Source: Paracoccus suum
Lineage (GTDB): Bacteria > Pseudomonadota > Alphaproteobacteria > Rhodobacterales > Rhodobacteraceae
NCBI RefSeq assembly: GCF_003324675.1
Contig: NZ_CP030918.1
Span: 2,430,001 to 2,462,000, forward strand
Length of the DNA stretch: 32,000 bases
Direction: 5' to 3'
Position 1 is the first letter of the stretch, and each line of letters starts with the position of its first letter. Shown here in pieces: positions 2,527 through 23,848 of the stretch. A program made the position numbers and the translations under genes. The notes below the pieces were generated by a model. It had not been told where the DNA came from and did not search any database. It saw only the letters and a program-made list of their open reading frames with translations.

Positions 2527-2562
2527 GGAGGATTGCGCAGCAATCGGGCCCTGCTTGCGGCC

Positions 2563-3105: not shown

Positions 3106-3324
3106 CGTATATACCCTTCCAGACTTCCCGGAGGCATCAGCGCCCTCGCCGGGTCGCGGTTCAACCCATTGCCGCGGCAGGCGTTCCGGGCTCTCGCGGC
3201 ATTCTTTTCACGGCCTCGCGGCGGCCGCGTCCGCCCCTCTGCAAACGCCCGCCTCAAACCTATTGCTTACTGGCGGGACGGCGGGCGGAATGACAGCCTT
3301 CGTCCAGGTAACTCCAGGGAGGAG

Positions 3325-6566: not shown

Positions 6567-6600
6567 GACACCGCGGGCATCTCCGCGGTGTTTGCATTTT
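6567..6600 (+). terminator. Rho-independent terminator downstream of fghA
   Basis: Stem ACACCGCGG (6568-6576) pairs with CCGCGGTGT (6583-6591) around the loop GCATCT. It is followed by TTGCATTTT (6592-6600) and lies 28 nt after the fghA stop. Confidence 0.6.
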
Positions 6601-6827: not shown

Positions 6828-9104
6828 ATGCTGAAGTTGCTGACATCAGCCGCCGGGCTGGCCATTTTCGCAACCGGGGCGCTGGCCAATGAAAGCGTAA
6901 TGGCCCTGACCAAGGACGACACCCAGTGGGCGTTGCAGACCAAGGACTACGCCAACACGCGCTATTCGACGCTGAAGCAGATCACCAAGGAAAACGTCGG
7001 TGACATGCGCGTGGCATGGAGCTTTTCGACGGGCGTGCTGCGCGGCCACGAAGGTGGACCGCTGGTCGTGGACGGCATCATGTATGTCCACACGCCGTTT
7101 CCGAACAACATCTTTGCGCTTGATCTGAACGACAACGGAAAGATCCTGTGGTCCTACAAGCCGCAGCAAAACCCCGAGACGATCGCGGTCATGTGCTGCG
7201 ATACCATCTATCGCGGCCTCGCCTATGCCGACGGCACGGTATTCCTGGCGCAGGCCGACACGACGCTGGTCGCGCTGGACGCAAAGTCGGGCGCGGTAAA
7301 ATGGTCGGTCAAGACCGGTGATCCGGCGATTGGCGAGACCAGCACCGCAACCGTGACCCCGGTCAAGGACAAGCTCCTGGTGGGGATCTCGGGCGGCGAA
7401 TATGGCGTGCGCGGTCGCATGACCGCCTACAACATCAGCGACGGCAGCGTCGCGTGGCAGGCTTGGTCCACCGGACCCGATGCCGATATGCTGGTCGATC
7501 CCGAAAAGACCATGGTGCTGGGCAAGCCGATTGGCGCCGACAGTTCGCTGAAGAGCTGGGAAGGCGATCAGTGGAAGATTGGCGGCGGCACCACCTGGGG
7601 CTGGACCTCGTATGACCCGGATCTGAACCTGGTCTATTACGGAACCGGCAACCCCTCGACCTGGAACCCGTCGCAGCGTCCGGGTGACAACAAGTGGTCG
7701 ATGACGATCATGGCCCGCGATGCCGACACCGGCATGGCGAAGTGGTTCTACCAGATGACGCCCCACGACGAGTGGGACTATGACGGCATCAACGAGATGA
7801 TCCTGACCGACCAGCAGTTCGACGGCAAGGATCGCAAGCTGCTCACGCACTTTGACCGGAACGGCTTTGGCTACACGCTCGACCGCGAAACGGGTGAGCT
7901 GTTGGTCGCTAAGAAGTACGACCCGGCCGTCAACTGGGCGACGGAAGTCGTCATGGACCCGTCGAGCGACCAGTATGGCCGCCCGCAGGTCGTGTCCAAA
8001 TACTCGACCGAGCAGAACGGCGAGGATACCAACTCTCAGGGTATCTGCCCGACCGCCCTCGGCAGCAAGGACCAGCAGCCGGCGGCCTACTCGCCCGAGA
8101 CGCAGCTGTTCTACGTGCCGACCAACCACGTCTGCATGGACTACGAGCCGTTCCGCGTCAGCTACACCGCCGGCCAGCCCTACATTGGGGCCACGCTGTC
8201 GATGTATCCCGCGCCCGGCAGCCATGGCGGGATGGGTAACTTCATCGCCTGGGACAACATCAAGGGCGAGATCAAGTGGACCATCCCCGAGACCTTCTCG
8301 GTCTGGTCCGGCGCCTTGGCGACCGCCGGCGGCGTGGTGTTTTACGGCACGCTCGAGGGCTATCTGAAGGCGATCGACGCCGAAACGGGCGAGGAGCTTT
8401 ACAGCTTCAAGACCCCGTCCGGGATCATCGGCAACGTGATGACCTACGAGTCCGGCGGCCAGCAGTATGTCGCCGTCCTGACGGGCGTCGGGGGCTGGGC
8501 GGGCATCGGTCTTGCGGCGGGTCTGACCGACCCGACTGCAGGTCTTGGCGCGGTTGGCGGCTATGCGTCGCTGTCGCAATACACCAATCTCGGCGGTCAG
8601 CTGACCGTGTTTGAAGTGCCGGGCACCGGCACGGGCGAGGCCAAGGTAGCCCAGGGCACCAAGCCGATCCCGGGTCCCGTTCCGATGGACAACAGCGGGA
8701 CCATGGCCCCGGCGCCAGCCCCGGCCGCGGCACCTGCCGCCCCGGCAGCGGACGGGGCAGCTCCCGCCGCTGATGCCGCACCGGCTGCGCCAGCAGCAGG
8801 TGCTGCGCCACCCGCAGCGCCAGCGGCGGACGCGGCGGCGCCGGCGGCCCCTGCGACCCCTGCCGCGGACGCTGCAGCGCCCGCGGCGGCAGCGCCCGCG
8901 GCTGGCACGGAGGCAGCGCCTGCCACCGACGCCAATGCCGAGGCGGGAGCCGCAACCGCTCAGCCCGGCACGGCCTCGAGCAGCGCGCAGGAGACCGGCA
9001 CCGTCTCGCCGAACGAGGCGCCGGCTGCCGCTCCGGCGGATGCCGCCGCTCCGGCTGCGGGCGCGGCGCCGGCACCTGCGCCCGCACCCGCGCCCTCCAA
9101 CTGA
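6828..9104 (+). CDS. xoxF: PQQ-dependent, lanthanide-type methanol/ethanol dehydrogenase XoxF with a C-terminal Ala/Pro-rich extension
   Basis: Signal peptide [22 protein letters not shown]. Vicinal Cys-Cys in VMCCD (7194-7199). DEWDYDG (DYDG = 7776-7787) carries the extra Asp diagnostic of lanthanide-dependent XoxF, where Ca-dependent MxaF has Ala. GGAGGG SD lies upstream. The canonical catalytic domain ends near residue 599 ([11 protein letters not shown], about 8624). Residues 600-758 form a low-complexity tail that runs to the TGA at 9102-9104. Confidence 0.9.
8703..9101 (+). repeat. low-complexity GCN/CCN imperfect tandem repeats encoding the Ala/Pro-rich XoxF tail
   Basis: Translation: [68 protein letters not shown]...[25 protein letters not shown]. 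By eye, synonymous codons (GCA/GCT, CCA/CCT) are more mixed here than in the catalytic part. Confidence 0.75.
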
Positions 9105-9192: not shown

Positions 9193-10017
9193 ATGACCCT
9201 GCGCGACATGCACGCCTGCCACGCGACCCAGAACAACTTCAGCCGGCCCGCCGGTCTTGGCCTGTCGCTGGCAGCGGCCTTGGCCCTCGCGGCCTCGCCA
9301 TTCCCGGCTGCGGCGCAGACCGCACCCGTTACGCCCGCCGCGCCCGCTGAAGCGACGCCGGCGCCTGCTCCCGCCGCTTCGTCTGACGCGATGCCGGCGC
9401 CTGCTGCTGCGCCCACTCCGGCAGCCCCAGCTGCTCCGGCCCCTGCCGCATCTCCGGCCGGCCAAGCTGCCGCACCCGCCGCCGCGGCCGCACCTGCGGC
9501 CGCCGCCCCGGCAGCAACCGCAGCGGCACCTGCCGAGCCGGTGCCTGAGGCAGCACCGACCGCGGCTGGCTCCGGCCCCGATACCACCGGCCCCACCGAG
9601 CAGAACAACGGCATCTGGTACACCGCCGAAGGCAATCCCACCTACAAGATCGCCGATGACGGCACGCTCGATTACGGCACCTTCGCCGGCTACATCCGCT
9701 ACACTGCCGAGTGCATGACCTGCCACGGCCCGGATGGAATGGGCTCGTCCTATGCCCCGCCGCTGAAGGACGTGGTCATGCGGATCACCTATTCCGACTT
9801 CACCGGCATCGTCGCTGGTGGCATGCAGGATGTCAGCGCTGCGCAAACCTTGGTGATGCCGTCGTTCGGCAACAATAACAACGTGATGTGCTACCTGGAC
9901 GGCATCTACGCCTATCTGCTTGCACGCGGTGAGGGCAAGGTCGACCGCGGTCGCCCGCCGAAGAAAGAACCGAAATCGGATGCCTTCAAGGCAGCCGAAG
10001 ACGAGTGCATGGGGTGA
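9193..10017 (+). CDS. xoxG: cytochrome c (c-553i / XoxG type), predicted electron acceptor of XoxF
   Basis: Signal peptide ...GLGLSLAAALALAASPFPAAA/QT. Single haem motif CMTCH (9712-9726) within YIRYTAECMTCHGPDGMGSSYAPPLKD. It sits directly after xoxF and before xoxJ. The start may alternatively be ATG 9208. Residues ~42-135 form an Ala/Pro-rich linker. Confidence 0.88.
   Translation: MTLRDMHACHATQNNFSRPAGLGLSLAAALALAASPFPAAAQTAPVTPAAPAEATPAPAPAASSDAMPAPAAAPTPAAPAAPAPAASPAGQAAAPAAAAAPAAAAPAATAAAPAEPVPEAAPTAAGSGPDTTGPTEQNNGIWYTAEGNPTYKIADDGTLDYGTFAGYIRYTAECMTCHGPDGMGSSYAPPLKDVVMRITYSDFTGIVAGGMQDVSAAQTLVMPSFGNNNNVMCYLDGIYAYLLARGEGKVDRGRPPKKEPKSDAFKAAEDECMG
9316..9597 (+). repeat. low-complexity region encoding the Ala/Pro-rich N-terminal linker of XoxG
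   Basis: Translation: [93 protein letters not shown]. The composition matches the XoxF tail 200-900 nt upstream. Confidence 0.75.
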
Positions 10018-10970
10018 TGCACATCGCCCGGACCATTGCGGCCGGCCTTACATTGGCGGTCATTCTGGCTGGCTCCGGATGGGCGCAAACCGCGCCCGGC
10101 AACGCCCCAGTCGTGGTGCCGGGCCCAGCGGCTGACGGGGCACCCCCGGAGGCACAGCAGCCGGGCGGCGCACCCATGCCCGGCGCGCCGTTCCCGGGCG
10201 CTGCGACGGCGCCGGCGGCGGAACTCGCTTCGCAAACATCCTTCCGGGTTTGTGCCGATCCGGCCAATGCGCCGATGTCGGTCAAGGACGGCAGCGGCTT
10301 CGAGAACCGCATTGCGGAACTGTTCGCGGCCAAGCTCGACCGGCCGCTGGAATACACCTGGTTCCCGCAGACGACCGGCTTCATCCGCAAGACCCTGCGC
10401 GCTTTCGCCTGCGATGTCGTCATCGGCTATGCCCAGGGCGACCAGCTGGTGCAGAACACCAACCATTACTACAGCTCGGCCTATGTGATCGTGACGCTGG
10501 CCGGGGGACCGCTCGACGGGGTCGACCGCATCAGCGATCCGCGCCTGCTGGGACACCGCATCGGGGTGACCGAGTCCTCGCCCCCGGTCAATCACATGTT
10601 GCACGCCGGGTTGCTGAAGACTGCAGCCTATTATCCACTGTTCGTCGATCGGCGCGTGCAGGACCCGGCCGGCGACATGCTGCGCGATCTGCACGCAGGC
10701 AAGATCGATGCCGCCATCCTCTGGGGGCCGATTGGCGGGCCGGCCGTCAAGGCCGATCCCAGCCTGACGATGGCGCCGCTGCTGCATGAGGTGGGCCAGC
10801 CCAAGTTGGTCTATCGCATCACCATGGGCGTCCGGCCGGCGGACCAGGCGTGGAAACGCCAGTTGAACAGCCTCATCCGCCGTAACCAGGCCGAGATCGA
10901 CGCAATCCTGCGCGATTCTGGCGTGCCACTGATTGATGACGAAGGCACCGCGCTCAAGCCTCCGGCATGA
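10017..10970 (+). CDS. xoxJ: XoxJ/MoxJ-type periplasmic binding protein (quinoprotein dehydrogenase-associated substrate-binding protein)
   Basis: ATG 10017 overlaps the xoxG stop (TGATG); ATG 10005 is an alternative. Signal peptide MHIARTIAAGLTLAVILAGSGWA/QT, then a Pro/Ala-rich linker, then FRVCADPANAPMSVKDGSGFENRIAELFA...GKIDAAILWGP, typical of MoxJ-like type 2 binding proteins. Confidence 0.85.
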   Translation: MHIARTIAAGLTLAVILAGSGWAQTAPGNAPVVVPGPAADGAPPEAQQPGGAPMPGAPFPGAATAPAAELASQTSFRVCADPANAPMSVKDGSGFENRIAELFAAKLDRPLEYTWFPQTTGFIRKTLRAFACDVVIGYAQGDQLVQNTNHYYSSAYVIVTLAGGPLDGVDRISDPRLLGHRIGVTESSPPVNHMLHAGLLKTAAYYPLFVDRRVQDPAGDMLRDLHAGKIDAAILWGPIGGPAVKADPSLTMAPLLHEVGQPKLVYRITMGVRPADQAWKRQLNSLIRRNQAEIDAILRDSGVPLIDDEGTALKPPA

Positions 10971-11503
10971 GACGCCTCCTTGCAACGGCGCTGGCCGCGC
11001 TTGCCCTCGCGATCCCCGCAGCAGCCGAGACGGTGCCAGAGCCGGACAGCTATCATGCTGCGCCCTATGAAGCGCCCGTACCGGAGACGCTGAGACGGGC
11101 AAACGTCGTCGACGCCGCCGGCGCGATGCGCCTGCGCGAGGCCGGGGCGGCCTTCATCGACGTGCTGCCGCAGACCCGCCGTCCCGAAGGCTTGCCGGCC
11201 GGGACTTTCTGGCGCGTACCGCCCCATGACAGCATCCCCGGTGCACTGTGGCTGCCCGACGCGGGGTTCGAGCGGCTGACGCCGACCGAGGAGGCGGCAC
11301 TGAGTGCCGGCCTTCAGCGCGCTACAGGTGGTGATCGGGACAAGCCGCTGGTCATTTTCTGCCGCCCGGACTGCTGGCTCAGCTGGAACGCCGCGCGACG
11401 GGCGGTCGCGCTTGGCTATAGCGCGGTCAACTGGTTTCCCGGTGGCACTGCCGCATGGGAGGCCGCGGGCGGCACGCTCGAGCCGGTCGCCCCATCGGAG
11501 TGA
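10967..11503 (+). CDS. rhodanese-like protein with a CXXCW motif (PQQ-dependent catabolism-associated CXXCW motif protein)
   Basis: ATGA overlap with xoxJ. Signal peptide MRRLLATALAALALAIPAAA/ET. The motif PLVIFCRPDCWLSWNAARRAVALGY has CRPDCW at 11360-11377. The rhodanese-like ending is NWFPGGTAAWEAAGG. Confidence 0.85.
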   Translation: MRRLLATALAALALAIPAAAETVPEPDSYHAAPYEAPVPETLRRANVVDAAGAMRLREAGAAFIDVLPQTRRPEGLPAGTFWRVPPHDSIPGALWLPDAGFERLTPTEEAALSAGLQRATGGDRDKPLVIFCRPDCWLSWNAARRAVALGYSAVNWFPGGTAAWEAAGGTLEPVAPSE

Positions 11504-11586
11504 TCGCTTAGGACCAAGGTCTTAGCTCACAAAGCTGGCAAGCTTGCCGGCCATCGGTCTAACATCAAGGACGGGGAGGGGTGACG

Positions 11587-12927
11587 ATGGGAAAGGGGAC
11601 CGGCGCAGCACTTTTGGCAATCCATGCCATGACGTTGACCGGTGCCGCGATCCCCGCCAGTGCGCCCGTCAGCCCGCCCTCGACTGCCCAACCCGCGAGC
11701 CCTCTGGCCGCTCCTGTGGCTCCTGCGGCAGCCTCTCAGCCCGCCAACCCTGCCGGGGCGCCCGCAGCCGCAGCTTCGTCAAACGCGAAGCTGCCCACTG
11801 CGGGCGAAATACGCGCCGGGGTGCTTAGGGTCGACACGCCAACGCTGCCGCCGGCATCGCGGCTCGATCTGCCTCCACCCGACCTCGGACTGGTTGGGGC
11901 AGAGCTTGCCACCCGCGACAACGCGACCACGGGCGGTTTCCTGGGTCAGACCTTCACAACCGAAACCGCGACCGCGACCCCGCAGGATGCGGTCGCGAAG
12001 TTGGAACGCCTGATCGACGGCGGCAGCGCGTTCATCGTGGTCATGGCGGACGACGCACAGACGCTGGCGCTCGCCGATGCGGCGCGCGCCAAGGCTGGGG
12101 ACAAGGTGTTGATCCTGAACGCGCTGGCCGAGGGGGACGACCTGCGCGGGGACGACTGCCGCGCGAACGTCATCCATGTCGCCGCCTCGCGCGCGATGAA
12201 ATCCGATGCGCTGGCGCAGTTCCTGATGTGGAAGCGATGGGGCAAGTGGTACCTGGTGGAAGGCAGCCACCCGCGGGACAAAGCCCTCGCCGCCGCCTAT
12301 GCCCGCGCCGCGACCAAGTTCGGCGCCAAGCTGGTCGAAACGCGCGAATTTACCGACACCGGCGGGGGCCGCCGGACCGATACCGGCTATGTCCAGATCC
12401 AGCAGCAGATGCCGGTTTTTACGCAGCGCGCACCCGGCCATGACGTACTGGTCGCGGCGGACGAGGCGGGCACCTTCGCGCCCTATCTGCCCTACCAGAC
12501 GTGGGACGCGCGCCCGGTCGTCGGTTCGGCCGGGCTGACGCCGGTCACCTGGCACCCCGCGGCAGAGGCTTGGGGCGGGACGCAACTGCAAACCCGGTTC
12601 GAGGCGCTGGCCCACCGGCCGATGCGCGAGGCGGATTACCAGGTGTGGCTGGCGCTGCGCCTGCTGGGCGAGGCCGCAAGCCGCGCGCCCAGCACGGATT
12701 TCGCGGCGCTGCGCGATCGCCTGTTGGGCCCGCAGTTCGAGGTCGGCGCCTTCAAGGGTCAAAAGCTGACGATCCGTGACTGGGACCATCAACTGCGCCA
12801 GCCGATCCTGTTGGCGACGCCCGCCATCGTTGCCTCGGTCTCGCCGCAGGACCAGTATCTGCACCAGACCAGTGCGCTCGACACGCTCGGGATCGACCGC
12901 CCCGAATCCACCTGCAAGCTGAAGTGA
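11587..12927 (+). CDS. periplasmic substrate-binding protein, type 1 (LivK-like), of the PQQ-dehydrogenase-associated ABC system
   Basis: GGAGG ends 7 nt before ATG 11587; the track start is GTG 11581. The N-terminal hydrophobic region is followed by an Ala/Pro/Ser-rich linker (PASAPVSPPSTAQPASPLAAPVAPAAASQPANPAGAPAAAAS). The binding-protein body follows (AFIVVMADDAQTLALADAARAKAGDKVLILNALAEGDDLRGDDC...WKRWGKWYLVEGSHPRDKALAAAY). Confidence 0.8.
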   Translation: MGKGTGAALLAIHAMTLTGAAIPASAPVSPPSTAQPASPLAAPVAPAAASQPANPAGAPAAAASSNAKLPTAGEIRAGVLRVDTPTLPPASRLDLPPPDLGLVGAELATRDNATTGGFLGQTFTTETATATPQDAVAKLERLIDGGSAFIVVMADDAQTLALADAARAKAGDKVLILNALAEGDDLRGDDCRANVIHVAASRAMKSDALAQFLMWKRWGKWYLVEGSHPRDKALAAAYARAATKFGAKLVETREFTDTGGGRRTDTGYVQIQQQMPVFTQRAPGHDVLVAADEAGTFAPYLPYQTWDARPVVGSAGLTPVTWHPAAEAWGGTQLQTRFEALAHRPMREADYQVWLALRLLGEAASRAPSTDFAALRDRLLGPQFEVGAFKGQKLTIRDWDHQLRQPILLATPAIVASVSPQDQYLHQTSALDTLGIDRPESTCKLK

Positions 12928-12935
12928 GGGTCCCG

Positions 12936-13916
12936 ATGCGACATCCCGCCGTCCGCCCCCTGGTGCTCAGCGCGCTGCTGTTAGTCCCCGTGCCCGCACT
13001 GGCGGCCAAGGTCTATGTCACCAACGAAAAGGGCAACAGCGTCACCGTGCTGGACGCCACCACGCTGGAAGTCGTCGGCACCCATCCGGTCGGTGCGCGG
13101 CCGCGTGGCATCACCATCGCCCCGGACGGGAGCGAGCTGTATGTCTGCGTCTCGGACGAGGATACGGTCAAGGTCTACGACCCGAAAACGATGGCCGAGT
13201 TGCACCGCCTGCCGTCCGGCCCGGACCCCGAACTGTTCGTGCTGCACCCCTCGGGCAACCCGCTCTACATCGCCAACGAGGATGACAATCTGGTCACCGT
13301 GGTCGACACCAAGACCCATCAGGTCCTGGCCGAGATCCCGGTCGGGGTCGAGCCGGAGGGGATGGGGATCTCGCCCGATGGCAAGGTGGTGGTCAACACC
13401 TCCGAGACGACCAACATGGCCCATTTCATCGACACGACGACCCACGAGATCACCGCCAACGTTCTGGTGGACCAACGCCCGCGCTTTGCCCAGTTCAGCG
13501 ATGACGGCAGCCGGCTTTACGTCTCGTCCGAGATCGGCGGCACGGTCAGCGTCATCGATCCGGCGACCCAGACCGTCACCGGCACCATAAAGTTCGAGAT
13601 CCAGGGCGTGCTGCCCGAGGCGATCCAGCCGGTCGGGGTCAAGGTCACGCATGACGGCAAGACGATCTTCGTCGCCCTCGGGCCGGCGAACCGGGTTGCG
13701 GTGGTCAATGCCGACACGCTGGAGGTCGAGGATTACCTTTTGACCGGGCAGCGGGTCTGGCAACTGGCCTTCAATGCCGATCAGAGCCGGCTGTTCACCA
13801 CCAATGGCAACAGCAACGACGTTTCGATCATCGATGTCCCGGCGCGCAAGGTGATCCAATCGGTGCAGGTCGGTCAGCAGCCTTGGGGCGTTGTTGTCGG
13901 ACCTGACAAACCATGA
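12936..13916 (+). CDS. YVTN-family beta-propeller protein (PQQ-dependent catabolism-associated beta-propeller protein)
   Basis: GTGAGGG acts as SD 5 nt before ATG 12936; GTG 12924, overlapping the previous stop, is an alternative start. Signal peptide MRHPAVRPLVLSALLLVPVPALA/AK. Repeated blades follow: VYVTNEKGNSVTVLD, LYVCVSDEDTVKVYD, LYIANEDDNLVTVVD, LYVSSEIGGTVSVID, LFTTNGNSNDVSIID. Confidence 0.85.
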   Translation: MRHPAVRPLVLSALLLVPVPALAAKVYVTNEKGNSVTVLDATTLEVVGTHPVGARPRGITIAPDGSELYVCVSDEDTVKVYDPKTMAELHRLPSGPDPELFVLHPSGNPLYIANEDDNLVTVVDTKTHQVLAEIPVGVEPEGMGISPDGKVVVNTSETTNMAHFIDTTTHEITANVLVDQRPRFAQFSDDGSRLYVSSEIGGTVSVIDPATQTVTGTIKFEIQGVLPEAIQPVGVKVTHDGKTIFVALGPANRVAVVNADTLEVEDYLLTGQRVWQLAFNADQSRLFTTNGNSNDVSIIDVPARKVIQSVQVGQQPWGVVVGPDKP

Positions 13917-14497
13917 GGACGAGCATGCAGATTCAATTCGGTCTGGCGCTGCTAGCGCTGTTAGCGAGCGGCTGGGCCGTGGCGGCGCAGGACGCAGCCA
14001 AGGCACCCGTTGATACCGCTCCGAATGGCGCGGTGGCCCAAGCGGAGGCGCCTGACGCCGATGACACTGACGCCGACAGCGGCGAAGCGCCTGCCGCCGC
14101 CGCCAGCGTTGCCGGTCCCGGGCATCACGACTACGGGCCCTCCGGCATCATGAGCCGCGCCAACCGCGAAGATCTGGCGCCCCTAACGCTCGCCTCCGGC
14201 AAGCCCGTCGCCGGCGCCCCGTACAGGTTGAAGTCGGGGGGCTACTACCGGATCGAGGTCTCCGCCGATGGCTCGGCCGAACTGGCCCTTTCCGGCGGCG
14301 ATTTCTTCCGTGCCATCTGGGTCAACGAGGTGGTCATCAACGATATCGAGATCAGGCCCATGGGTCTGCACAGCCTGGAGTTCGACGACGCCGGCACGGC
14401 CACCATCAGCTTCGTCGCAATCCGGCCCGGCAGCTACGCCCTGTCCGTCCCCGGATCCAGCGGCGAGGGCCAGAAAGCTACGTTCGTGATCGAATGA
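13913..14497 (+). CDS. secreted hypothetical protein (acidic linker plus beta-rich C-terminal domain)
   Basis: ATGA overlaps at both ends (13913-13916 and 14494-14497) embed it in the operon. Signal peptide MRTSMQIQFGLALLALLASGWAVAA/QD. An acidic stretch DADDTDADSGE lies at 14054-14086. The C-terminal ~110 aa has an alternating beta pattern (YYRIEVSADGSAELALSGGDFFRAIWVNEVVINDIEIRP...TATISFVAIRPGSYALSV...ATFVIE). It has no Cys. I do not recognise a family. Confidence 0.65.
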   Translation: MRTSMQIQFGLALLALLASGWAVAAQDAAKAPVDTAPNGAVAQAEAPDADDTDADSGEAPAAAASVAGPGHHDYGPSGIMSRANREDLAPLTLASGKPVAGAPYRLKSGGYYRIEVSADGSAELALSGGDFFRAIWVNEVVINDIEIRPMGLHSLEFDDAGTATISFVAIRPGSYALSVPGSSGEGQKATFVIE

Positions 14498-15243
14498 CCC
14501 AAGACGTCGCCCTTCGTCCACCGGCGCTGCTGGTCGAGGGTGTCAGCCACGCCTTTGGTCTGACCCGAGCCCTGGACGGGGTGTCGCTTCAGGTGATGGC
14601 GGGGCAGTTCGTGGCCCTGCTGGGCATCAACGGGGCCGGCAAATCGACGCTGATCAATGTCGCAACCCGCCTCTACGACAGCGGCGCAGGACGGGTCGCG
14701 ATTGCCGGCCATGACCTGCGCCGCGCTCCCTCTGCCGCGCTCGCGCGTCTGGGCGTGGTGTTCCAGAGCCGCGCCCTCGATGCGGACCTGACCGTGGCGC
14801 AGAACCTGCACTACCACGCGGCGCTGCATGGGATCGGCCGGGCGGAGGCGCGGGGGCGGATCGCCGAGGTCCTGGCCCTGGTAGATCTGCAGGACAAAGC
14901 CCGCGCCCGCGTCGCCACCTTGTCGGGCGGGCAGGTCCGCCGCGCCGAGATCGCCCGCGCCCTGATCCACCGGCCCGAGGTCATGATCCTCGACGAGCCG
15001 ACCACCGGCCTCGATGTCCGCTCTCGGGCCGAGGTTCTCGCCCTCACCCAGCGCCTGACGCGGACCGGCGCGGTCGGCGTCTTGTGGGCCACCCACCTGC
15101 TGGCCGAGGTGACCGAGGCTGACGCCATCATCGTCCTGCATCAGGGGCGCGTACTGTGGTCCGGGCCGCCACAGGATTTGGCGCGGGAGGGCGATCTGAC
15201 CGCCGCCTTCCTCAGCCTGACCGGCGCGCAGGCGGCGGCATGA
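14494..15243 (+). CDS. ABC transporter ATP-binding protein (PedB/LutE-like)
   Basis: Walker A GINGAGKST, signature LSGGQVRR, Walker B VMILDEPTTGLD, H-loop WATHLL. ATGA overlaps occur at both ends. Confidence 0.92.
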   Translation: MTQDVALRPPALLVEGVSHAFGLTRALDGVSLQVMAGQFVALLGINGAGKSTLINVATRLYDSGAGRVAIAGHDLRRAPSAALARLGVVFQSRALDADLTVAQNLHYHAALHGIGRAEARGRIAEVLALVDLQDKARARVATLSGGQVRRAEIARALIHRPEVMILDEPTTGLDVRSRAEVLALTQRLTRTGAVGVLWATHLLAEVTEADAIIVLHQGRVLWSGPPQDLAREGDLTAAFLSLTGAQAAA

Positions 15244-16130
15244 ACGCGATTTCGAACGCGGAGGCGCAGTCCGTACCAGCCCCGGCCGACGCGGCGGTGG
15301 GTCCCGGCAATGCCTCCGCGCCCCCCCGGCTGCCACCCCGCGCCTACGCCATTGCCTTCGCCGGCATCGCCCGGCGCGAGGCACTGCGCTTTGTCAACCA
15401 GCGGGGCCGCTTCCTGGCCGCACTCGTGCGGCCGCTCGTCTGGTTGTTCATCTTTGCCGCAGGATTCCGCGCAGTGCTCGGGCTGTCCATCACGCCCCCC
15501 TACAACACCTATGTCCTTTACGAAGTCTATGTGACGCCCGGCCTCGTTGCGATGATCCAACTATTCAACGGCATGCAATCCTCGCTCTCGATGGTCTATG
15601 ACCGCGAGACGGGGGCGATGCGCACCTTGCTGGTCAGCCCGCTGCCTCGCTGGTTCCTGCTGCTTTCCAAGCTCGTCGCCGGGGTGTTCGTTTCGATCAT
15701 CCAAGCGGCCGTCTTTCTGGCGATTGCCTGGCTCTGGGATATCCGCCCGCCGCTGCTCGGCTATCTCGCGGTCGTGCCCGCACTGGTGCTGTCAGGCCTG
15801 ATGCTGGGCGCGCTTGGGCTGCTGCTCAGCTCGGCCATCCGCCAGCTCGAGAATTTTGCCGGGGTCATGAACTTCGTGATCTTCCCGATGTTCTTCGCCT
15901 CCAGCGCGCTCTATCCGCTCTGGCGCATGAACGAGGGCAGCCCGCTGCTGCGCGACATCTGTGCGCTGAACCCCTTTACCTACGCGGTCGAACTGATCCG
16001 CTTTGCCCTCTACCTTCAGGTGGACTGGCTGTCGCTGGGCGTCGTCATGGGCTGCCTGGTGCTGTTCTTTGGCCTCGCCGTCAGGCTGTACGATCCCGCG
16101 CGGGGCGGCCCGCGCCGAAAGGAGGGGTGA
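15240..16130 (+). CDS. ABC-2 type transporter permease (PedC/LutF-like)
   Basis: ATG 15240 overlaps the ATPase stop (ATGA); the track start 15156 lies inside the ATPase gene. The 296-aa protein has about six hydrophobic helices (FLAALVRPLVWLFIFAAGF, VTPGLVAMIQLFNGM, LLLSKLVAGVFVSIIQAAVFLAIAWLW, YLAVVPALVLSGLMLGALGLLLSSAI, VMNFVIFPMFFASSALYPL, LSLGVVMGCLVLFFGLAV). Confidence 0.85.
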   Translation: MNAISNAEAQSVPAPADAAVGPGNASAPPRLPPRAYAIAFAGIARREALRFVNQRGRFLAALVRPLVWLFIFAAGFRAVLGLSITPPYNTYVLYEVYVTPGLVAMIQLFNGMQSSLSMVYDRETGAMRTLLVSPLPRWFLLLSKLVAGVFVSIIQAAVFLAIAWLWDIRPPLLGYLAVVPALVLSGLMLGALGLLLSSAIRQLENFAGVMNFVIFPMFFASSALYPLWRMNEGSPLLRDICALNPFTYAVELIRFALYLQVDWLSLGVVMGCLVLFFGLAVRLYDPARGGPRRKEG

Positions 16131-16960
16131 TGCGATTTCTTGTGACAGCTTCGGGCGCGGCCTTGGGCCTAATGCTTGCGGCCCCGGCTATGGCGGCCGA
16201 GGCGACCGCCGAATGGCCCTGCGTACAGCCGCGCCAGCCGCATCTGTCGATCGGCCAGATGTGGACCGGCCCGGCTCCGACACCGCAGGCCGAGGCGCTC
16301 GCCAAGAATGACCAGACGATCGACACGCTGGCCGAGACTCTCGCCCTGCGGCGCGTGCCGATCGATTCCGCGCGCGAGCTGATCGACGCCTTCGCTGTGG
16401 AGGCGACCCCGGAGCAGCGCACTGCACTGATGCTCGCGACCCTGGCGCGGGTTGACCGACAGCGGACCGCGATCCTTGATGGCATCACGCGCTATGGCGA
16501 GGGGCAGGCCGACCTTGCACGCCACGTCGCAGAGCGTCGCGCGACCCTTGACGCGATGGCGCAGGAAGCCAAGCCCGATTTCGACAAGATCGATGCCGAG
16601 GAAGAAAAGCTCGACTGGGATCAGCGCATCTTTGAAGAGCGGCGCCAGATGCTGAGCGCGGTCTGCGAAAGCCCGGTGCTGATGGAGCAGCGCTTGTTCG
16701 AGATCGCACGCCTCATCGCCGCCGCGCCGGAAGGTGCGGGTGGGTCAGACGTGGCGGGGACCGAAGAGACGGGCGCAAAACCCGACAAGGTAAACGCGGC
16801 GGGAAACGACACGCCTGTTGCGGGCGAAGCGAAACCGGCGGGGGCCGACGCGGCGCCAAGCCCGCCAGGGACGACGGCGGACGGGACGGAAACGCCAGGC
16901 GTGGACGCCTCGGGGGCTGGTGCGACCGGGCCGGGAATTACTCCCACTCAAGCTCCTTGA
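16130..16960 (+). CDS. secreted hypothetical protein (helical, two Cys, disordered C-terminal tail)
   Basis: GTGATG at 16127-16132 overlaps the permease stop, so the start is GTG 16127 or ATG 16130. Signal peptide MRFLVTASGAALGLMLAAPAMA/AE. The body is predicted helical with Cys in EWPCVQP and SAVCESP. The last ~70 aa are Gly/Ala/Pro/Thr-rich. I do not recognise a family. Confidence 0.6.
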   Translation: MRFLVTASGAALGLMLAAPAMAAEATAEWPCVQPRQPHLSIGQMWTGPAPTPQAEALAKNDQTIDTLAETLALRRVPIDSARELIDAFAVEATPEQRTALMLATLARVDRQRTAILDGITRYGEGQADLARHVAERRATLDAMAQEAKPDFDKIDAEEEKLDWDQRIFEERRQMLSAVCESPVLMEQRLFEIARLIAAAPEGAGGSDVAGTEETGAKPDKVNAAGNDTPVAGEAKPAGADAAPSPPGTTADGTETPGVDASGAGATGPGITPTQAP

Positions 16961-17987
16961 AGGCGCTTGCCGCATCGCGCGCGGTGGTGGCGTCGAAATC
17001 TCCAAGGTCGGCCGCCAAGGGACGCATGGCCTCGACCACCTGCGGGATCGCCTCGCTCAGCGATCGTCCCTCCGCAATCGCCGCGCGGACGGTCTGCGCC
17101 AGTGCTTCAAGGTAGCTGCGCGTCTCGGCACTGCCTTCGACCCAACCGGCAGCAACCGGACCGTGGCCAGGTACGACATGGTCGGGCGGTGGTTCTGGGG
17201 CCTTTCCGAGCCACGCCAGCCAGCCGATGATCGAGCCGTCCAGAACCGGTGTCGTGCCGCGAAACAGCAGATCGCCGGTAAACAGCGTGCGGCTGGCGCC
17301 GTGCCACGCCGTCAGATCCGCATCGCTGTGCCCCGGCGGCTGGGGGGTCAGATCCAAGCTGTCGCCGCCGAAACCCACTGCCTCGCCCTCAGCTAGCAGT
17401 TTGTCCGGTGCGATGAAGGCGCTGCCATGCCAGGCTGCCTCGCCCAGGGTCTCGCGGTAACCGCTTTCCCACGTCGCGCGCCGCGCCGCGAGCGAGGCTG
17501 GCAGGGCGGCATTCGCGATGACCTGCGCGCCGGCCTCGTGGAACAACTCGGCCCCCAGGCTGTGGTCGGGATGGGCATGGGTCAGGACGACCGTGGTGAC
17601 GGGCAGGGGCGTCAGGCGGCGAATGGCGGCCAGCAGCGCCTCGGCCTCGGCCCGCGTGCCGCCGGGGTCGATGACGGCAACGCCGCGCGGTCCCGTCACG
17701 ACGCCGCTGTTGGCAATTTCCCCATGATTGTCGGCACTGGCAGTGCCCGGCGCGCCCAAATGGACCCACACGCCTGACGCGACCGGCGCCAGCGTCAGCG
17801 TGGGCAACGTGTCGGTGGGAGCGCACCGCTGCCCCTCACCGCGCATCGAATGTGCCGCCAGCCACGGAGAGGCAACAGCGGTCGCGCCAGCTTCGCAGGC
17901 GGCGATTTGCGCATTATCACCCTGCGGCAGCCAGCGTTCGGCGCAGGTGCCGCCCACGGTGCAGGCCATGACGAGCAGATGAAACAT
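16938..17987 (-). CDS. metallo-beta-lactamase fold hydrolase (quinoprotein relay system zinc metallohydrolase type)
   Basis: The 349-aa protein has the HxHxDH motif in VVLTHAHPDHSLG and later HSDAD and PGHGP motifs. The N-terminal ~55 aa contain four Cys. GAGGGGG lies just upstream of ATG 17987. It is divergent from pqqA. Its 3' end overlaps the convergent gene 16130..16960 by 23 bp. Confidence 0.85.
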   Translation of the reverse strand: MFHLLVMACTVGGTCAERWLPQGDNAQIAACEAGATAVASPWLAAHSMRGEGQRCAPTDTLPTLTLAPVASGVWVHLGAPGTASADNHGEIANSGVVTGPRGVAVIDPGGTRAEAEALLAAIRRLTPLPVTTVVLTHAHPDHSLGAELFHEAGAQVIANAALPASLAARRATWESGYRETLGEAAWHGSAFIAPDKLLAEGEAVGFGGDSLDLTPQPPGHSDADLTAWHGASRTLFTGDLLFRGTTPVLDGSIIGWLAWLGKAPEPPPDHVVPGHGPVAAGWVEGSAETRSYLEALAQTVRAAIAEGRSLSEAIPQVVEAMRPLAADLGDFDATTARDAASAFKELEWE

Positions 17988-18271: not shown

Positions 18272-19162
18272 ATGCGCCTGATCGTTCTGGGGGCCGGCGC
18301 GGGCGGCGGCCTGCCGCAGTGGAACTGCGGTTGCCGTAATTGCGAGGGGGCGCGGTCGGGGCGGATCGCGCCGATGACGCAGTCCTCGATTGCTGTCAGC
18401 GCGGACGGCGCCACGTGGGCGGTGATCAACGCCTCGCCGGACATCCGCGCGCAGATCGCCGCAACGCCGGCGCTGCATCCTAAAACGTTGCGCGGCAGCT
18501 CGATTGCCGCCGTGCTGCTGACCAATGGCGATCTGGATCACGTGGCCGGCCTGCTGACCCTGCGCGAGGGCCAGCCATTCCGTTTGCTGGCCACCGCGGC
18601 GATTCATGATGTGCTGGCTGGAAACCCGATGCTGAACGCCCTTGATCCGAGCATCGTCCTGCGCGAGGTGATCGCCGTGGAAACGCCGTTCGACCTGCTG
18701 CCCGGCCTGACCGCGCGGCTGATGCCGGTGCCGGGCAAGGTGCCGCTGTATCTCGAAGCGGGACAGGTGGTGACCGACGCCATGGGCGAGGAGACCGTGG
18801 CGGTCGAGCTGACCTCGGGCGGCAAGCGGGCGGTCTATGCCCCGGCTTGCGCGGCCATGCCGCCGATGCTGCGCGCGCGGCTTGCAGGCGCCGATCTGCT
18901 GCTGCTCGACGGGACGGTCTGGACCGATGACGAGATGCCGCGCGCCGGCCTCTCGACCAAGACGGGTCGGCGCATGGGGCATATGGCTGTCTCCGGCGCG
19001 GACGGCAGCATGGCTGCGCTGGACGGAACAGAAATTGGCGACAAGATCCTGATCCATATCAATAATTCGAATCCGCTGGTCGATCCCGACAGTTCCGCCC
19101 GCGCGACCGCCGCGGCCGCCGGCTGGCGCGTTGCGCATGACGGAATGGAGGTCACATGCTGA
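18272..19162 (+). CDS. pqqB: PQQ biosynthesis protein B (MBL fold)
   Basis: The 296-aa protein has MRLIVLGAGAGGGLPQWNCGCRNC, LLTNGDLDHVAGLLTLREG and LIHINNSNPL. Confidence 0.93.
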   Translation: MRLIVLGAGAGGGLPQWNCGCRNCEGARSGRIAPMTQSSIAVSADGATWAVINASPDIRAQIAATPALHPKTLRGSSIAAVLLTNGDLDHVAGLLTLREGQPFRLLATAAIHDVLAGNPMLNALDPSIVLREVIAVETPFDLLPGLTARLMPVPGKVPLYLEAGQVVTDAMGEETVAVELTSGGKRAVYAPACAAMPPMLRARLAGADLLLLDGTVWTDDEMPRAGLSTKTGRRMGHMAVSGADGSMAALDGTEIGDKILIHINNSNPLVDPDSSARATAAAAGWRVAHDGMEVTC

Positions 19163-19902
19163 GCCGCCCACCCCTCGACCGCGAGAGTTTCGAGGCACGG
19201 CTACGGGCCATCGGCGCGGCACGCTACCACGACCGACACCCGTTCCATGCGCTGCTCCACGGCGGGCAGGCGAGTGCCGACCAGGTCCGCGCCTGGGTGA
19301 TCAACCGCTGGTATTACCAATCGCGCATCCCGATGAAGGACGCGGCTTTCATGTCGCGCGTGACCGACCCGGCCTTGCGCCGCGCCTGGCGCTCGCGGAT
19401 CGAGGATCATGACGGTGGTCTGGACGAGGGCGGCGGCCTGCGCCGTTGGCTGCGATTGGCCGAGGCGGTGGGCCTCGACCCGGGCTACGTCGCCAGCGGT
19501 GCGGGCGTGATGCCGGCGACGCGTTTCGCAGTCGATGCCTATGTCCGCTTCGTGCGCGACATGCCCTTGCTGGACGCCGTTGCCTCGTCTCTGACCGAGA
19601 TGTTCGCCCCGAAAATTCATGCCGAACGTATCGAAGGGCTTCTGCAACATTATGATTTCGCGGATGAAACGGCGCTCAGCTATTTTCGCACCCGGCTTGC
19701 CGAGGCACCGCGCGACGTTGCCTTCGGGCTGCGCCATGTCCTCGATCACGCCGATACGGCGGAAAAGCAGGACGCGGCGGCCGATGCGCTGACCTTCAAG
19801 ACCGACGTGCTGTGGGCGCAACTGGACGCCCTTTGGTCGGGCTATGTCGAGCCCGGCCGCATCCCGCCGGGCGCCTGGCAACCGGGCGAGGGATTGCGAT
19901 GA
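19156..19902 (+). CDS. pqqC: pyrroloquinoline-quinone synthase
   Basis: The 248-aa protein has RYHDRHPFHALLHGG...WVINRWYYQSRIPMKDAAFMSR...RRWL. It overlaps the pqqB end by 7 nt. Confidence 0.95.
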   Translation: MLSRPPLDRESFEARLRAIGAARYHDRHPFHALLHGGQASADQVRAWVINRWYYQSRIPMKDAAFMSRVTDPALRRAWRSRIEDHDGGLDEGGGLRRWLRLAEAVGLDPGYVASGAGVMPATRFAVDAYVRFVRDMPLLDAVASSLTEMFAPKIHAERIEGLLQHYDFADETALSYFRTRLAEAPRDVAFGLRHVLDHADTAEKQDAAADALTFKTDVLWAQLDALWSGYVEPGRIPPGAWQPGEGLR

Positions 19903-20213
19903 CGGACGCGCAAACCCTCAAGCTCGACCCACATGCCGTGCCCTGGCTGCCGCGCGGTGTGCGCCTTGCCGAGGACAAGGTGCGGGGCATGCGCGTTCTG
20001 CTCGGTCCTGAGCGGGCGATGCAACTGGATGAGGTGGGGGACGCGATCCTGACCTCGCTCGACGGACGGCGCAGCGTGGCCCAGATCGCCGGCGATCTGG
20101 GCGCCCGCTTTGGCGCGCCGCCGGCCGAGGTTCTGCCCGACGTGTCCGAGTTTCTGTCCGGCCTGATCGAGCGCCGGTTGGTGTTCACAACCCCGGACAA
20201 ACCATGGACGTGA
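19899..20213 (+). CDS. pqqD: PQQ biosynthesis peptide chaperone PqqD
   Basis: ATGA overlap with pqqC (19899-19902). The track start 19812 lies inside pqqC. The 104-aa protein has LPRGVRLAEDKVRGMRVLLGPERAMQLDEVGDAILTSLDGRRSVAQIAGDL. Confidence 0.9.
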   Translation: MTDAQTLKLDPHAVPWLPRGVRLAEDKVRGMRVLLGPERAMQLDEVGDAILTSLDGRRSVAQIAGDLGARFGAPPAEVLPDVSEFLSGLIERRLVFTTPDKPWT

Positions 20214-21355
20214 TCTCAACCCAGCCGTGCGACATCGACGGCAACCGGGTTGCCGTCCGGCCGCCCATGGCGATGCTGGCCGAGATCACGCACCGCTGCC
20301 CGCTGGCCTGCCCCTATTGCTCGAATCCGTTGCAACTATCGGCAGCAAGTACCGAAATCAACGCGAATACCTGGATGCGCGTATTTCGCGAAGCGGCGGC
20401 GATTGGCGTTCTGCAGGTGCATATCTCTGGCGGCGAGCCAGCCTCGCGCCGCGACCTGGAGGAGATTTGCGCCGGCGCGCGCGAAGCTGGCCTCTACGTG
20501 AACCTCATCACCTCGGGCGTCGGCCTGACCGAGGCGCGGGTGCGGGCGCTGGATGCGGCCGGGGTAGATCATGTCCAACTGTCTGTGCAGGGTGTGAACG
20601 CCGCCATGTCGGACTGGATCGGCGGCTATCGCGGCGGCTTTGCGCGCAAGATGCAGGCGGCCGAATGGATCGTCGCGGCCGGGCTGCCGCTGACGCTGAA
20701 TGCCGTGGTGCATCGCCAGAACATCGACGACCTGCCGCAGGCCATCGCCATGGCAGAGGCGCTGGGCGCGCGACGGATCGAGGTTGCGACCGTCCAGTTC
20801 CACGGCTGGGCCGAGCTGAACCGGCCCATGCTGATGCCGACCGAGGCGCAGGCCCGCACCGCTCGGGAAGTGGTCGATGCCGCGCGCGTAAGGCTGCGCG
20901 GCCGAATGGTGGTCGATTACGTCCCGGCCGATCACCACGCGCGCTATCCCAAGGCCTGCATGGGCGGCTGGGGCTCGACCGGGCTGAACGTGACGCCCGA
21001 CGGCACCGTCCTGCCGTGCCATGCCGCGCAGACCATCCCGCACCTGAGTTTTCCCAATGTTCGCGAGGCCTCGCTGGCCGAGATCTGGGAGCAATCGCCT
21101 GCCTTCAACGCCTATCGCGGCACCGGCTGGATGGCCGAGCCCTGCGCCTCCTGCCCGCGCAAGGAAGTCGATTTTGGCGGCTGCCGCTGCCAGGCGATGC
21201 GGCTTGCCGGGGATGCGCGGGCGACCGACCCGGTGTGCATCCTATCGCCCCTCCACGCCGAACTCGCGGCGAGGGTCGCCGCCGAGGTCGCGGCGCCAGA
21301 GGTATCGGGATTCACGTGGCGGCGGATGCCGCGCCCCGTTCGGGAGGATGCCTGA
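20204..21355 (+). CDS. pqqE: PqqA peptide cyclase, radical SAM/SPASM enzyme
   Basis: CX3CX2C motif CPLACPYC (20297-20320). C-terminal SPASM Cys cluster (CASCPRKEVDFGGCRCQA...DPVC). It overlaps pqqD by 10 nt. Confidence 0.95.
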   Translation: MDVISTQPCDIDGNRVAVRPPMAMLAEITHRCPLACPYCSNPLQLSAASTEINANTWMRVFREAAAIGVLQVHISGGEPASRRDLEEICAGAREAGLYVNLITSGVGLTEARVRALDAAGVDHVQLSVQGVNAAMSDWIGGYRGGFARKMQAAEWIVAAGLPLTLNAVVHRQNIDDLPQAIAMAEALGARRIEVATVQFHGWAELNRPMLMPTEAQARTAREVVDAARVRLRGRMVVDYVPADHHARYPKACMGGWGSTGLNVTPDGTVLPCHAAQTIPHLSFPNVREASLAEIWEQSPAFNAYRGTGWMAEPCASCPRKEVDFGGCRCQAMRLAGDARATDPVCILSPLHAELAARVAAEVAAPEVSGFTWRRMPRPVREDA

Positions 21356-23631: not shown

Positions 23632-23717
23632 CGCGCGATTGTCGCCTGCCATGCCGGCCGCGACAAGAGGAATGGAGGCGGGCGGTCCAGGGCGCGCCAA
23701 CGCGCGACCTCTGGCGC

Positions 23718-23745
23718 TTGACACCGCGGCGCACCCCTTTATAAG
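23718..23745 (+). promoter_or_regulatory. sigma-70-type promoter of rpsD
   Basis: TTGACA (23718-23723), then a 16-nt spacer, then TATAAG (23740-23745). It lies about 100 nt upstream of the rpsD GTG. Confidence 0.55.
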
Positions 23746-23848
23746 CCCGCCCTTCATTGGTGTTGGTGGACCCCGCAAGGGGAAACCTGTCGCCCGTTCG
23801 CGGGAAAAGGACAACGCCCTTCTGAAACGCTAAGAAGGAGATCAGCGC

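Follow-up and report, generated by a model that had tools for sequence, protein, structure and literature searches.

The stretch of DNA analyzed here, positions 2,430,001 to 2,462,000 of Paracoccus suum contig NZ_CP030918.1 (32,000 nucleotides [nt]; hereafter, the window), contains a run of six genes at positions 11587 to 16960, all on the plus strand, that encode, in this order, a substrate-binding protein, a YVTN beta-propeller protein, a secreted protein (open reading frame 3 [ORF3]), an ATP-binding cassette (ABC) ATPase, an ABC-2 permease, and a second secreted protein (ORF6). An earlier note, made from the DNA letters, had read this run as an operon of the PedA1A2BC/lut type that handles lanthanides for the adjacent XoxF methanol dehydrogenase, with ORF3 and ORF6 as extra proteins of unknown family. 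The ORF listing and the sequence itself confirmed the six genes, their order, their coordinates, and the letters at their junctions as that note had given them. Since the third-position GC content of the six ORFs is 82 to 86% in a genome of 68% GC, they look like real genes. The run starts directly 3' of xoxF, xoxG, xoxJ, and a gene for a CXXCW rhodanese-like protein. Families were called with NCBIfam models at their curated cut-offs, with Pfam alongside, and the assignments are listed below (lengths in amino acids [aa]).

11587 to 12927, plus strand: LutA/PedA1 periplasmic substrate-binding protein (TIGR03863, 460.2 bits; cut-off, 413.6; profile positions 2 to 347 of 347)
12924 to 13916, plus strand: LutB/PedA2 periplasmic YVTN beta-propeller (TIGR03866, 513.3 bits; cut-off, 287.3)
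13913 to 14497, plus strand: LutC-like secreted protein (ORF3), 194 aa, with a signal peptide, an acidic linker, and a 125-aa C-terminal cupredoxin-like beta-sandwich
14494 to 15243, plus strand: LutE/PedB ABC ATPase (TIGR03864, 308.7 bits; cut-off, 302.25; NCBI AXC50311.1)
15240 to 16130, plus strand: LutF/PedC ABC-2 permease (TIGR03861, 393.2 bits; cut-off, 241.35; PF01061, ABC2_membrane; NCBI AXC50312.1)
16130 to 16960, plus strand: LutG-family secreted protein (ORF6), with a conserved core (residues 1 to 200) and an ~80-aa Ala/Pro/Gly/Thr-rich tail

The transporter core and its quinoprotein neighbors

The four core gene products all exceeded the curated cut-offs of their models, which together describe the transporter of a "PQQ-dependent alcohol dehydrogenase system" (PQQ, pyrroloquinoline quinone), and these profile matches confirmed their membership in the PedA1A2BC/LutABEF families. 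The next-best model for the ATPase was DrrA (197.8 bits, under DrrA's own cut-off), and the next-best family for the permease was the daunorubicin exporter DrrB. LutA carries an Ala/Pro-rich linker after its signal peptide. The best matches in Sinorhizobium meliloti were 57% (binding protein), 68% (propeller), 48% (ATPase), and 68% (permease) identical to the P. suum proteins and sit at the positions of b20178, b20179, b20184, and b20185, which are listed as the lutA, lutB, lutE, and lutF homologues of that organism (Table S3, PMC12628762), an indirect argument for orthology.

The genes that tie this core to a quinoprotein pathway flank it on the same strand.

6828 to 9104, plus strand: XoxF-type PQQ methanol dehydrogenase, 758 aa (TIGR03075, 747 bits)
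9193 to 10017, plus strand: XoxG, methanol-metabolism c-type cytochrome (TIGR03874, 198 bits; cut-off, 162)
10005 to 10970, plus strand: XoxJ/MoxJ-like periplasmic binding protein, its gene overlapping xoxG by 13 nt (TIGR03871, 285 bits; cut-off, 212)
10967 to 11503, plus strand: PQQ-dependent catabolism-associated CXXCW rhodanese-like protein (TIGR03865, 196 bits; cut-off, 128; NCBI AXC50308.1)
18272 to 21355, plus strand: pqqB (TIGR02108, 390 bits), pqqC, pqqD, and pqqE (TIGR02109, 539 bits)

The CXXCW rhodanese gene, whose counterpart in Pseudomonas putida is PP_2666, overlaps xoxJ in an ATGA. The XoxF homologue, 78% identical to the 600-aa XoxF of Paracoccus denitrificans, carries a DYDG motif at residue 317; we take DYDG, in which an extra Asp coordinates the lanthanide, to be the mark of XoxF, MxaF having DYAG at this place. 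With xoxF lying 2.5 kb upstream of the operon on the same strand, the link to a dehydrogenase of the PQQ methanol/ethanol family is present.

Taken together, the four curated cut-offs passed, the presence of xoxFGJ and the CXXCW gene upstream and of pqqBCDE downstream, and the DYDG motif of XoxF give the central support, at the level of sequence, for reading this region as the P. suum orthologue of the lut/ped lanthanide ABC system that accompanies XoxF methanol dehydrogenases, and we consider this reading probable. The cut-offs, the DYDG motif, and the lut counterparts in S. meliloti bear out the partnership with the adjacent XoxF that the earlier note had proposed.

All five internal junctions of the operon are start/stop overlaps in P. 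suum, as read from the sequence.

Binding protein to propeller: GTGA, a 4-nt overlap (with ATG 12936 as the propeller start, an 8-nt gap)
Propeller to ORF3: ATGA
ORF3 to ATPase: ATGA
ATPase to permease: ATGA, the permease starting at ATG 15240 and not at the GTG 15156 of the longest ORF
Permease to ORF6: GTGATG, overlapping by 4 nt if ORF6 starts at GTG 16127 and by 1 nt if it starts at ATG 16130

The NCBI entries for the permease (AXC50312.1, 296 aa) and the ATPase (AXC50311.1) share the starts that the earlier note implied, and the NCBI start of ORF6 is ATG 16130, which yields a 276-aa protein. For the binding protein, ATG 11587 is a better start than GTG 11581 because GGAGG lies 7 nt upstream of it. 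For ORF3, NCBI places the start at ATG 13925; ATG 13913 yields a signal peptide with a positively charged N-region, as in relatives.

Promoter and terminator scans of the window returned no more sites than were found in shuffled sequence. They showed no terminator-like site from xoxF to the end of ORF6, and the only gaps over this distance are 88 nt (xoxF to xoxG) and 77 nt (11504 to 11580), so the transcription unit may comprise ten genes rather than six. A strong terminator-like hairpin was detected at 6567 to 6592, upstream of xoxF. An 18-nt palindrome within the 77-nt gap (11534 to 11551; GCTGGCAAG/CTTGCCGGC) was considered as a regulatory site and discarded, since it is not conserved upstream of lutA in relatives, and an Rfam search of the window returned no RNA family.

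The conservation of the arrangement was assessed in a genome scan with a narrower LutG alignment and one genome per species, of which the best 80 of 468 matches, almost all from Paracoccus, were analyzed. Almost all of these 80 Paracoccaceae genomes have the order lutA, lutB, lutC-like, lutE, lutF, lutG 3' of xoxFGJ and the CXXCW gene, the LutC-like gene being missing only in two Tabrizicola genomes and one Paracoccaceae metagenome-assembled genome (MAG). P. denitrificans shares all six genes with P. suum (locus L003; L numbers designate the fetched loci). Outside the Paracoccaceae, the common form is a five-gene core that lacks the LutC-like gene (L085 to L087, L095, L096, and L098, as well as Bradyrhizobium, judged there from consecutive locus tags), and this lutA-B-E-F-G core lies beside xoxFGJ in a Chromatiaceae MAG, in Tistlia, and in several metagenome contigs. 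In Microvirga, lutE, lutF, and lutG stay together, and xoxFGJ separates them from lutA and lutB.

For the junction statistics, the start codon nearest the upstream stop was chosen, which favors overlaps. On this basis, the ATPase and permease genes overlap by 4 nt in 51 of 57 loci, and the permease and lutG genes overlap in 72 of 84 loci (~85%); the other three junctions are variable in relatives, with gaps of mostly 5 to 40 nt. Since relatives keep an overlap at only two of the five junctions, the overlap at every junction is best read as a compaction peculiar to P. suum. The earlier note had taken the overlaps to imply cotranslation at fixed stoichiometry; translational coupling is indeed suggested by them, whereas fixed stoichiometry over-reads a pattern conserved at two junctions. 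That this coupling is conserved is an argument for synthesis of LutG along with the membrane core, although it does not establish such a stoichiometry.

Several further features of gene order were observed in the relatives. Most Paracoccus genomes have ~2 kb between the CXXCW gene and lutA, which the P. suum window lacks (11504 to 11580), so that lut abuts xox. In P. denitrificans, this space holds two divergent genes (L003, 6582 to 7694), encoding a Polyketide_cyc2 (MxaD-like) protein and a DUF3280 protein, that are absent here in P. suum, and DUF3280 genes also flank lutA or lutB in the distant loci L095, L097, and L098. On roseobacter plasmids, the transporter and the LutC-like gene lie beside genes for a PedF-type cytochrome and another PQQ dehydrogenase, and a gene for a Sel1-repeat protein follows the permease gene, as in these two cases.

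L091, 9908 to 10456: Sel1-repeat gene on a Phaeobacter gallaeciensis plasmid
L092, 9905 to 10441: Sel1-repeat gene on a Pseudosulfitobacter plasmid

This Sel1-repeat protein, which occupies the LutG slot, was tried as a LutG relative and found to be unrelated (hhalign probability, 0.1%).

The two accessory secreted proteins

Neither ORF3 nor ORF6 matched a Pfam or NCBIfam model, and scans of 51 ORF3-family and 79 ORF6-family members at E ≤ 1 returned scattered coiled-coil and low-complexity noise only; a weak match to Metal_resist was seen in 3 of the 79 LutG-family members (E = 0.14). Searches against PDB with the single sequences and with profiles likewise gave noise for both proteins (E ≥ 0.057), which ruled out either one as a sequence relative of any solved structure or of LanD (LutD), the 6.8-kDa disulfide-stapled three-helix bundle whose gene overlaps the ATPase gene in Methylorubrum extorquens AM1 (PMC11551332). 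Both proteins nevertheless belong to conserved families: ORF3 has 2,038 homologues at E ≤ 0.001, and an exhaustive profile search with ORF6 returned 1,058 representative clusters at 50% identity at E ≤ 0.001, 231 of them at E ≤ 1e-30.

ORF6 was assigned to the LutG family through S. meliloti. In a tblastn search, it matched an S. meliloti ORF (L089, 17596 to 18237, minus strand) with 33% identity over 199 aligned residues (E = 2e-28), and on pSymB of strain 2011 the genes after this ORF are, in order, frmA, frmB, one for a cytochrome c, and xoxF. Given that frmA is SM2011_b20170, frmB is b20171, and xoxF is b20173 (Table S3, PMC12628762), the gene order identifies the ORF as SM2011_b20169, which the same table lists as the homologue of M. 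extorquens lutG, META1_1784. In AM1, lutG was a hit in a transposon screen, and the deletion mutant lagged by 12 h and grew at 0.03 per hour, relative to 0.16 per hour for the wild type, a defect that was complemented in trans (PMC7391723).

Named members of the LutG family come from Paracoccus, Roseovarius, Skermanella, Tistlia, and a Chromatiaceae MAG, and plasmid-borne copies occur in Sinorhizobium, Rhizobium, Azospirillum, and Microvirga, among others; all are annotated as "hypothetical protein." In all distant loci examined, the lutG-family gene is found near xoxFGJ, mostly directly 3' of the ABC-2 permease gene. ORF6 itself has a Sec signal peptide (cleavage between AMA and AE), and its ~80-aa tail is specific to P. 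suum, the protein being 276 aa long versus ~195 to 210 aa in relatives. Its AlphaFold2 model is all-helical, with a mean predicted local distance difference test (pLDDT) score of 92, and Foldseek comparison with PDB returned generic helical bundles and BAR domains (best E = 0.13), so that no fold could be assigned. Six residues are invariant across 79 diverse members (W29, C31, W45, Q126, C179, and P182), with five Arg residues nearly so; C31 and C179 may form a disulfide. The conserved Arg, Trp, and Gln residues and the coupling to the permease make LutG look less like a binder of the bare cation than like a docking partner or a protein that binds an anionic ligand. On one metagenome contig, the gene directly after a lutB-type propeller gene beside xoxFGJ is a member of the lutG family, and neither an ATPase nor a permease gene intervenes (L097, 9019 to 10630), an arrangement that hints that LutG may also work with the propeller.

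ORF3 could be related to known proteins by its predicted structure. The AlphaFold2 model of its C-terminal domain (pLDDT, ~85 to 92) matched cupredoxins in Foldseek with E values of 1e-6 to 1e-4 and probability 1.0 (225 matches at E ≤ 0.001), including copper nitrite reductase, laccase, AcoP, and CuA domains, at sequence identities of 10 to 21%. While ORF3 resembles cupredoxins in its beta-sandwich, it has neither a type-1 nor a CuA copper site: the mature protein contains no Cys, and a comparison of seven distant members shows no invariant His or Met. Because of this lack of Cys and of conserved His or Met, ORF3 is predicted to be incapable of binding copper in the manner of a cupredoxin. The polar residues that are invariant across the same seven members are instead E123, R133, E146, E156, and D158, and an acidic linker, DADDTDAD in P. 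suum, precedes the domain. Ahead of the LutC-like domain, a run of at least 4 Asp residues is present in 41 of 72 genomic homologues, the longest reaching 11. The acidic tract and the invariant carboxylates suggest a capacity for low-affinity cation capture. The poly-Asp run recurs in Paracoccus, roseobacters, and Rhizobium; S. meliloti lacks it, and P. suum has only a weak form of it. Examples of loci in which it occurs are the following.

L002, 4773 to 5240: LutC-like gene with Asp run
L091, 7914 to 8369: LutC-like gene with Asp run
L093, 7770 to 8354: LutC-like gene with Asp run
Paracoccus loci between L005 and L084, near position 8000: LutC-like genes with Asp run

The LutC-like gene always lies just upstream of the ATPase gene in Paracoccus, in Sinorhizobium, and on roseobacter plasmids, often overlapping it. 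In the lut cluster of M. extorquens PA1, the interval between the propeller gene and the ATPase gene includes a hypothetical gene whose product has a putative cupredoxin fold (PMC6850437); since the other of the two genes in this interval is LanD/LutD, the cupredoxin-fold gene is LutC. Clusters that lack a LutC-like gene had no remote copy of it when all fetched loci were searched with a hidden Markov model in six-frame translation. We picture the LutC-like protein as a periplasmic accessory of particular lineages that could hold lanthanide (Ln3+) ions with its acidic tail and conserved carboxylates.

Given that ORF3 is absent from L001, L085 to L087, L095, L096, L098, three Paracoccaceae genomes, and Bradyrhizobium, that no lutG follows pedC in P. 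putida (PMC12997753), and that an AM1 lutC mutant has only a small defect (PMC7391723), ORF3 and ORF6 might be lineage-specific passengers with no role in transport. We regard this as exceedingly improbable, however. The strong growth defect of the AM1 lutG mutant was complemented (PMC7391723), the LutG gene adjoins and overlaps the permease gene across Alpha- and Gammaproteobacteria, and ORF3 keeps its place upstream of the ATPase gene, often overlapping it, across Rhodobacterales and Rhizobiaceae.

A bolder reading, which we put forward tentatively and consider unlikely as a whole, would make LutG an obligatory periplasmic subunit of the transporter and the LutC-like protein a new type of lanthanide-binding protein. 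Its first part draws on the all-alpha structure of LutG, its two invariant Cys residues, its conserved Arg and Trp residues, the lack of a structural relative in PDB, and the ~85% overlap with the permease gene; it would allow an exporter-fold ABC-2 permease to take cargo from a binding protein, and LutABEFG would then form a distinct class of ABC importer. Under its second part, which draws on the poly-Asp tract and on the four invariant carboxylates of the copper-less cupredoxin domain, the LutC-like protein would bind lanthanide in the periplasm and replace LanD and lanmodulin in Paracoccus, Sinorhizobium, and roseobacters.

Comparison with known systems and direction of transport

In M. 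extorquens, the lut cluster comprises lutABCDEFG-lutH-lanM-lutI (META1p1778-1787) (Roszczenko-Jasinska 2020, PMC7391723; Ochsner 2019, PMC6850437). The AM1 and PA1 clusters share with P. suum the binding protein, propeller, ATPase, and ABC-2 permease, a secreted LutG encoded after the permease, a gene for a putative cupredoxin-fold protein between those for the propeller and the ATPase, and the association with XoxF and PQQ genes, and in M. extorquens as in P. suum the accessory proteins are periplasmic and have no assigned biochemistry. That a binding protein and a propeller accompany an ABC-2 permease, a combination that the earlier note had called unexplained, was already described; it defines the architecture of the family and is not peculiar to this locus. 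Similarly, the two secreted proteins are extra relative to the Pseudomonas ped genes, as that note had stated, but not relative to M. extorquens lut, which includes lutC and lutG. The homology and synteny comparison that it had called for shows four core families shared with ped and lut, an ORF6 of the LutG family, and an ORF3 that is LutC-like by fold and position.

The P. suum locus also differs from M. extorquens lut in several ways. The P. suum operon does not encode LanD/LutD, every junction being an overlap that leaves no room for a further ORF, and the LutC-like gene occupies the place upstream of the ATPase gene that LanD/LutD has in AM1. All junctions overlap in P. suum, unlike in M. 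extorquens lut, and the operon abuts xoxFGJ, whereas xoxF1 of AM1 (META1p1740) lies apart from lutA (META1p1778). The 32-kb window contains no LutI and, in agreement with the earlier note, no Plug/TonB-receptor domain and no EF-hand lanmodulin; the receptor and lanmodulin may lie elsewhere in the genome. Comparable absences of a linked receptor or lanmodulin have been reported for S. meliloti, which has no obvious lutH (PMC12628762), and for P. putida (PMC12997753), and they are common outside Methylobacterium. In one distant lutABEFG locus, a TonB-dependent receptor gene is divergently adjacent to lutA (L087, 3062 to 5590), like M. extorquens lutH, and receptor linkage is therefore not confined to Methylobacterium.

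PedA1A2BC of P. putida KT2440 (PP_5538, PP_2669, PP_2668, and PP_2667; Wehrmann 2019, as summarized in PMC12997753) shares the four core families and a linked CXXCW rhodanese gene with P. suum. It has neither a LutC-like nor a LutG gene, pedC being followed by the rhodanese gene PP_2666 (PMC12997753), and its partner enzyme is PedH, of the ethanol dehydrogenase type, where P. suum has XoxF. The region of S. meliloti pSymB from SM2011_b20169 to b20185 (PMC12628762) contains homologues of all six P. suum genes, with 33 to 68% identity, and shares the location beside xoxFGJ, frmA, frmB, and a SoxH-like hydrolase gene. It differs in that the lutG homologue is detached, lying on the far side of xoxF and on the opposite strand (L089, 17596 to 18237), in that ~2.4 kb of extra genes, including a second ATPase-like ORF, lie between the LutC-like and ATPase genes (L089, 27830 to 32129), and in that the LutC-like protein has two Cys residues near its N terminus and no acidic tract.

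By analogy with these systems, the P. suum transporter would move lanthanide ions, or a lanthanide chelate, from the periplasm to the cytoplasm and so serve the adjacent XoxF; once in the cytoplasm, the lanthanide would switch on xoxF expression and be stored. LutA would capture the ligand, LutE2F2 would power transport, and LutG would act as the periplasmic partner of the permease, while the role of LutB in P. suum can only be inferred. In AM1, lutE and lutF mutants fail to grow on methanol with lanthanum (La), and lutA, lutB, and lutG mutants grow slowly and can be complemented; in mutants of the binding protein, ATPase, or permease, La is deposited in the periplasm, and deposits like those of the wild type are not seen in the cytoplasm (PMC7391723). 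In P. putida, PedA1A2BC is required for lanthanide-dependent quinoprotein function at low lanthanide and is needed for the cytoplasmic lanthanide signal (PMC12997753).

Since the permease belongs to the ABC-2 family (PF01061) and the next-best families for the permease and the ATPase are DrrB and DrrA, respectively, the LutEF/PedBC core could also be viewed as an exporter of a periplasm-bound product, with the periplasmic proteins receiving the cargo, be it a lanthanide chelator, PQQ, a toxic aldehyde, or lanthanide returned to metallate XoxF. Existing names point the same way, NCBI calling the permease a "multidrug ABC transporter permease" and P. putida PedB being listed as an "ABC efflux transporter" (PMC12997753), and the authors of the AM1 study leave open that lanthanide is released in the cytoplasm and then exported for insertion into XoxF1 (PMC7391723). 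Their mutants nevertheless argue for import: lutA, lutE, and lutF mutants accumulate La in the periplasm without cytoplasmic deposits, and induction of xoxF needs the transporter (PMC7391723). In addition, the system always comes with a gene for a dedicated binding protein (TIGR03863). We therefore consider export improbable.

The cargo, too, could be of another kind. PedABC was originally named an "alcohol ABC transporter," a name kept in the description of TIGR03861 ("alcohol ABC transporter, permease protein"); the cluster co-occurs with genes of the quinoprotein maturation type (CXXCW rhodanese, SoxH-like hydrolase, and SoxYZ); and the transporter and LutC-like genes are also found beside PedF-type dehydrogenase clusters in roseobacters. 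Based on these observations, the system in Paracoccus might transport no lanthanide at all and serve instead an alcohol or other substrate of a quinoprotein pathway, or the general maturation of periplasmic PQQ dehydrogenases. Genetic work in two organisms that are far apart, however, ties the system specifically to growth at low lanthanide (PMC7391723; PMC12997753), P. aeruginosa, which has only a Ca-dependent enzyme, lacks the transporter (PMC12997753), and the dehydrogenase adjacent to the P. suum operon is of the lanthanide type (DYDG). A cargo other than lanthanide consequently appears very improbable.

Some points weigh against our preferred reading of the locus as a lut/ped lanthanide importer. 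Its function in Paracoccus is transferred by analogy from M. extorquens and P. putida, and the ATPase exceeds the TIGR03864 cut-off by a narrow margin (308.7 versus 302.25 bits). The permease has an ABC-2 fold, which elsewhere is typical of exporters, and a binding protein feeding it would be without structural precedent. As for the accessory proteins, the chain that places ORF6 in the LutG family is indirect, running through a tblastn match to S. meliloti and a published BLAST table, and the LutG invariants (Trp, Cys, Gln, and Pro, with near-invariant Arg) are unlike a lanthanide site, so that its role is a guess; ORF3 matches LutC (META1p1780) in modeled fold and in position only. Finally, no outer membrane receptor, LanD, or lanmodulin is encoded in the window to account for entry into the periplasm.

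Flanking genes and meaning for lanthanide uptake

Beyond the xox and pqq genes, the window contains the following genes, along with several ORFs of no assigned family.

about 3.4 to 3.9 kb, plus strand: gfa (Gfa domain), upstream of flhA
4069 to 5196, plus strand: flhA
5703 to 6539, plus strand: fghA
16938 to 17987, minus strand: SoxH-like "quinoprotein relay system zinc metallohydrolase 2" (TIGR04559, 286 bits; cut-off, 280)
about 21.3 to 22.13 kb, 3' of pqqE: SoxYZ fusion, ~270 aa

The SoxH-like gene is convergent with the lutG-like gene, and their 3' ends overlap by 23 nt (16938 to 16960), within the low-complexity tail of LutG that is specific to P. suum. Long ORFs with high third-position GC and no Pfam or NCBIfam match were noted at 1405 to 3300, at 22828 to 23814 (minus strand), and at 28536 to 30080.

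Long Ala/Pro-rich low-complexity extensions were also observed in five periplasmic proteins of the P. suum cluster.

8500 to 9104: C terminus of XoxF
9250 to 9600: N terminus of XoxG
10060 to 10200: XoxJ
11650 to 11800: N terminus of LutA
16730 to 16960: C terminus of LutG

In XoxF, the tail is ~150 aa long, which brings the protein to 758 aa versus 600 aa in P. denitrificans. Weak tandem repeats of 12 to 21 nt underlie some of these extensions, which may be periplasmic spacers or merely tolerated expansion.

The locus is an ordinary instance of the known lut system that has no LanD, LutH, lanmodulin, or LutI in the window and is fused directly to xoxFGJ. For annotation, this means that all six genes can be named, as lutA, lutB, lutC-like, lutE, lutF, and lutG, where NCBI currently lists the ATPase as "ATP-binding cassette domain-containing protein," the permease as "multidrug ABC transporter permease," and the two accessory proteins as "hypothetical protein." LutG and the LutC-like proteins thereby emerge as two widespread families that are tied to lanthanide uptake and have no curated Pfam or NCBIfam model. 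P. denitrificans, which is genetically tractable and has the same operon, offers a convenient second system for the roles of the accessory proteins and for binding-protein-dependent metal import through an ABC-2 permease, and the acidic, copper-less cupredoxin-like protein is a plausible candidate for a lanthanide-binding scaffold, with applied interest in rare-earth separation.

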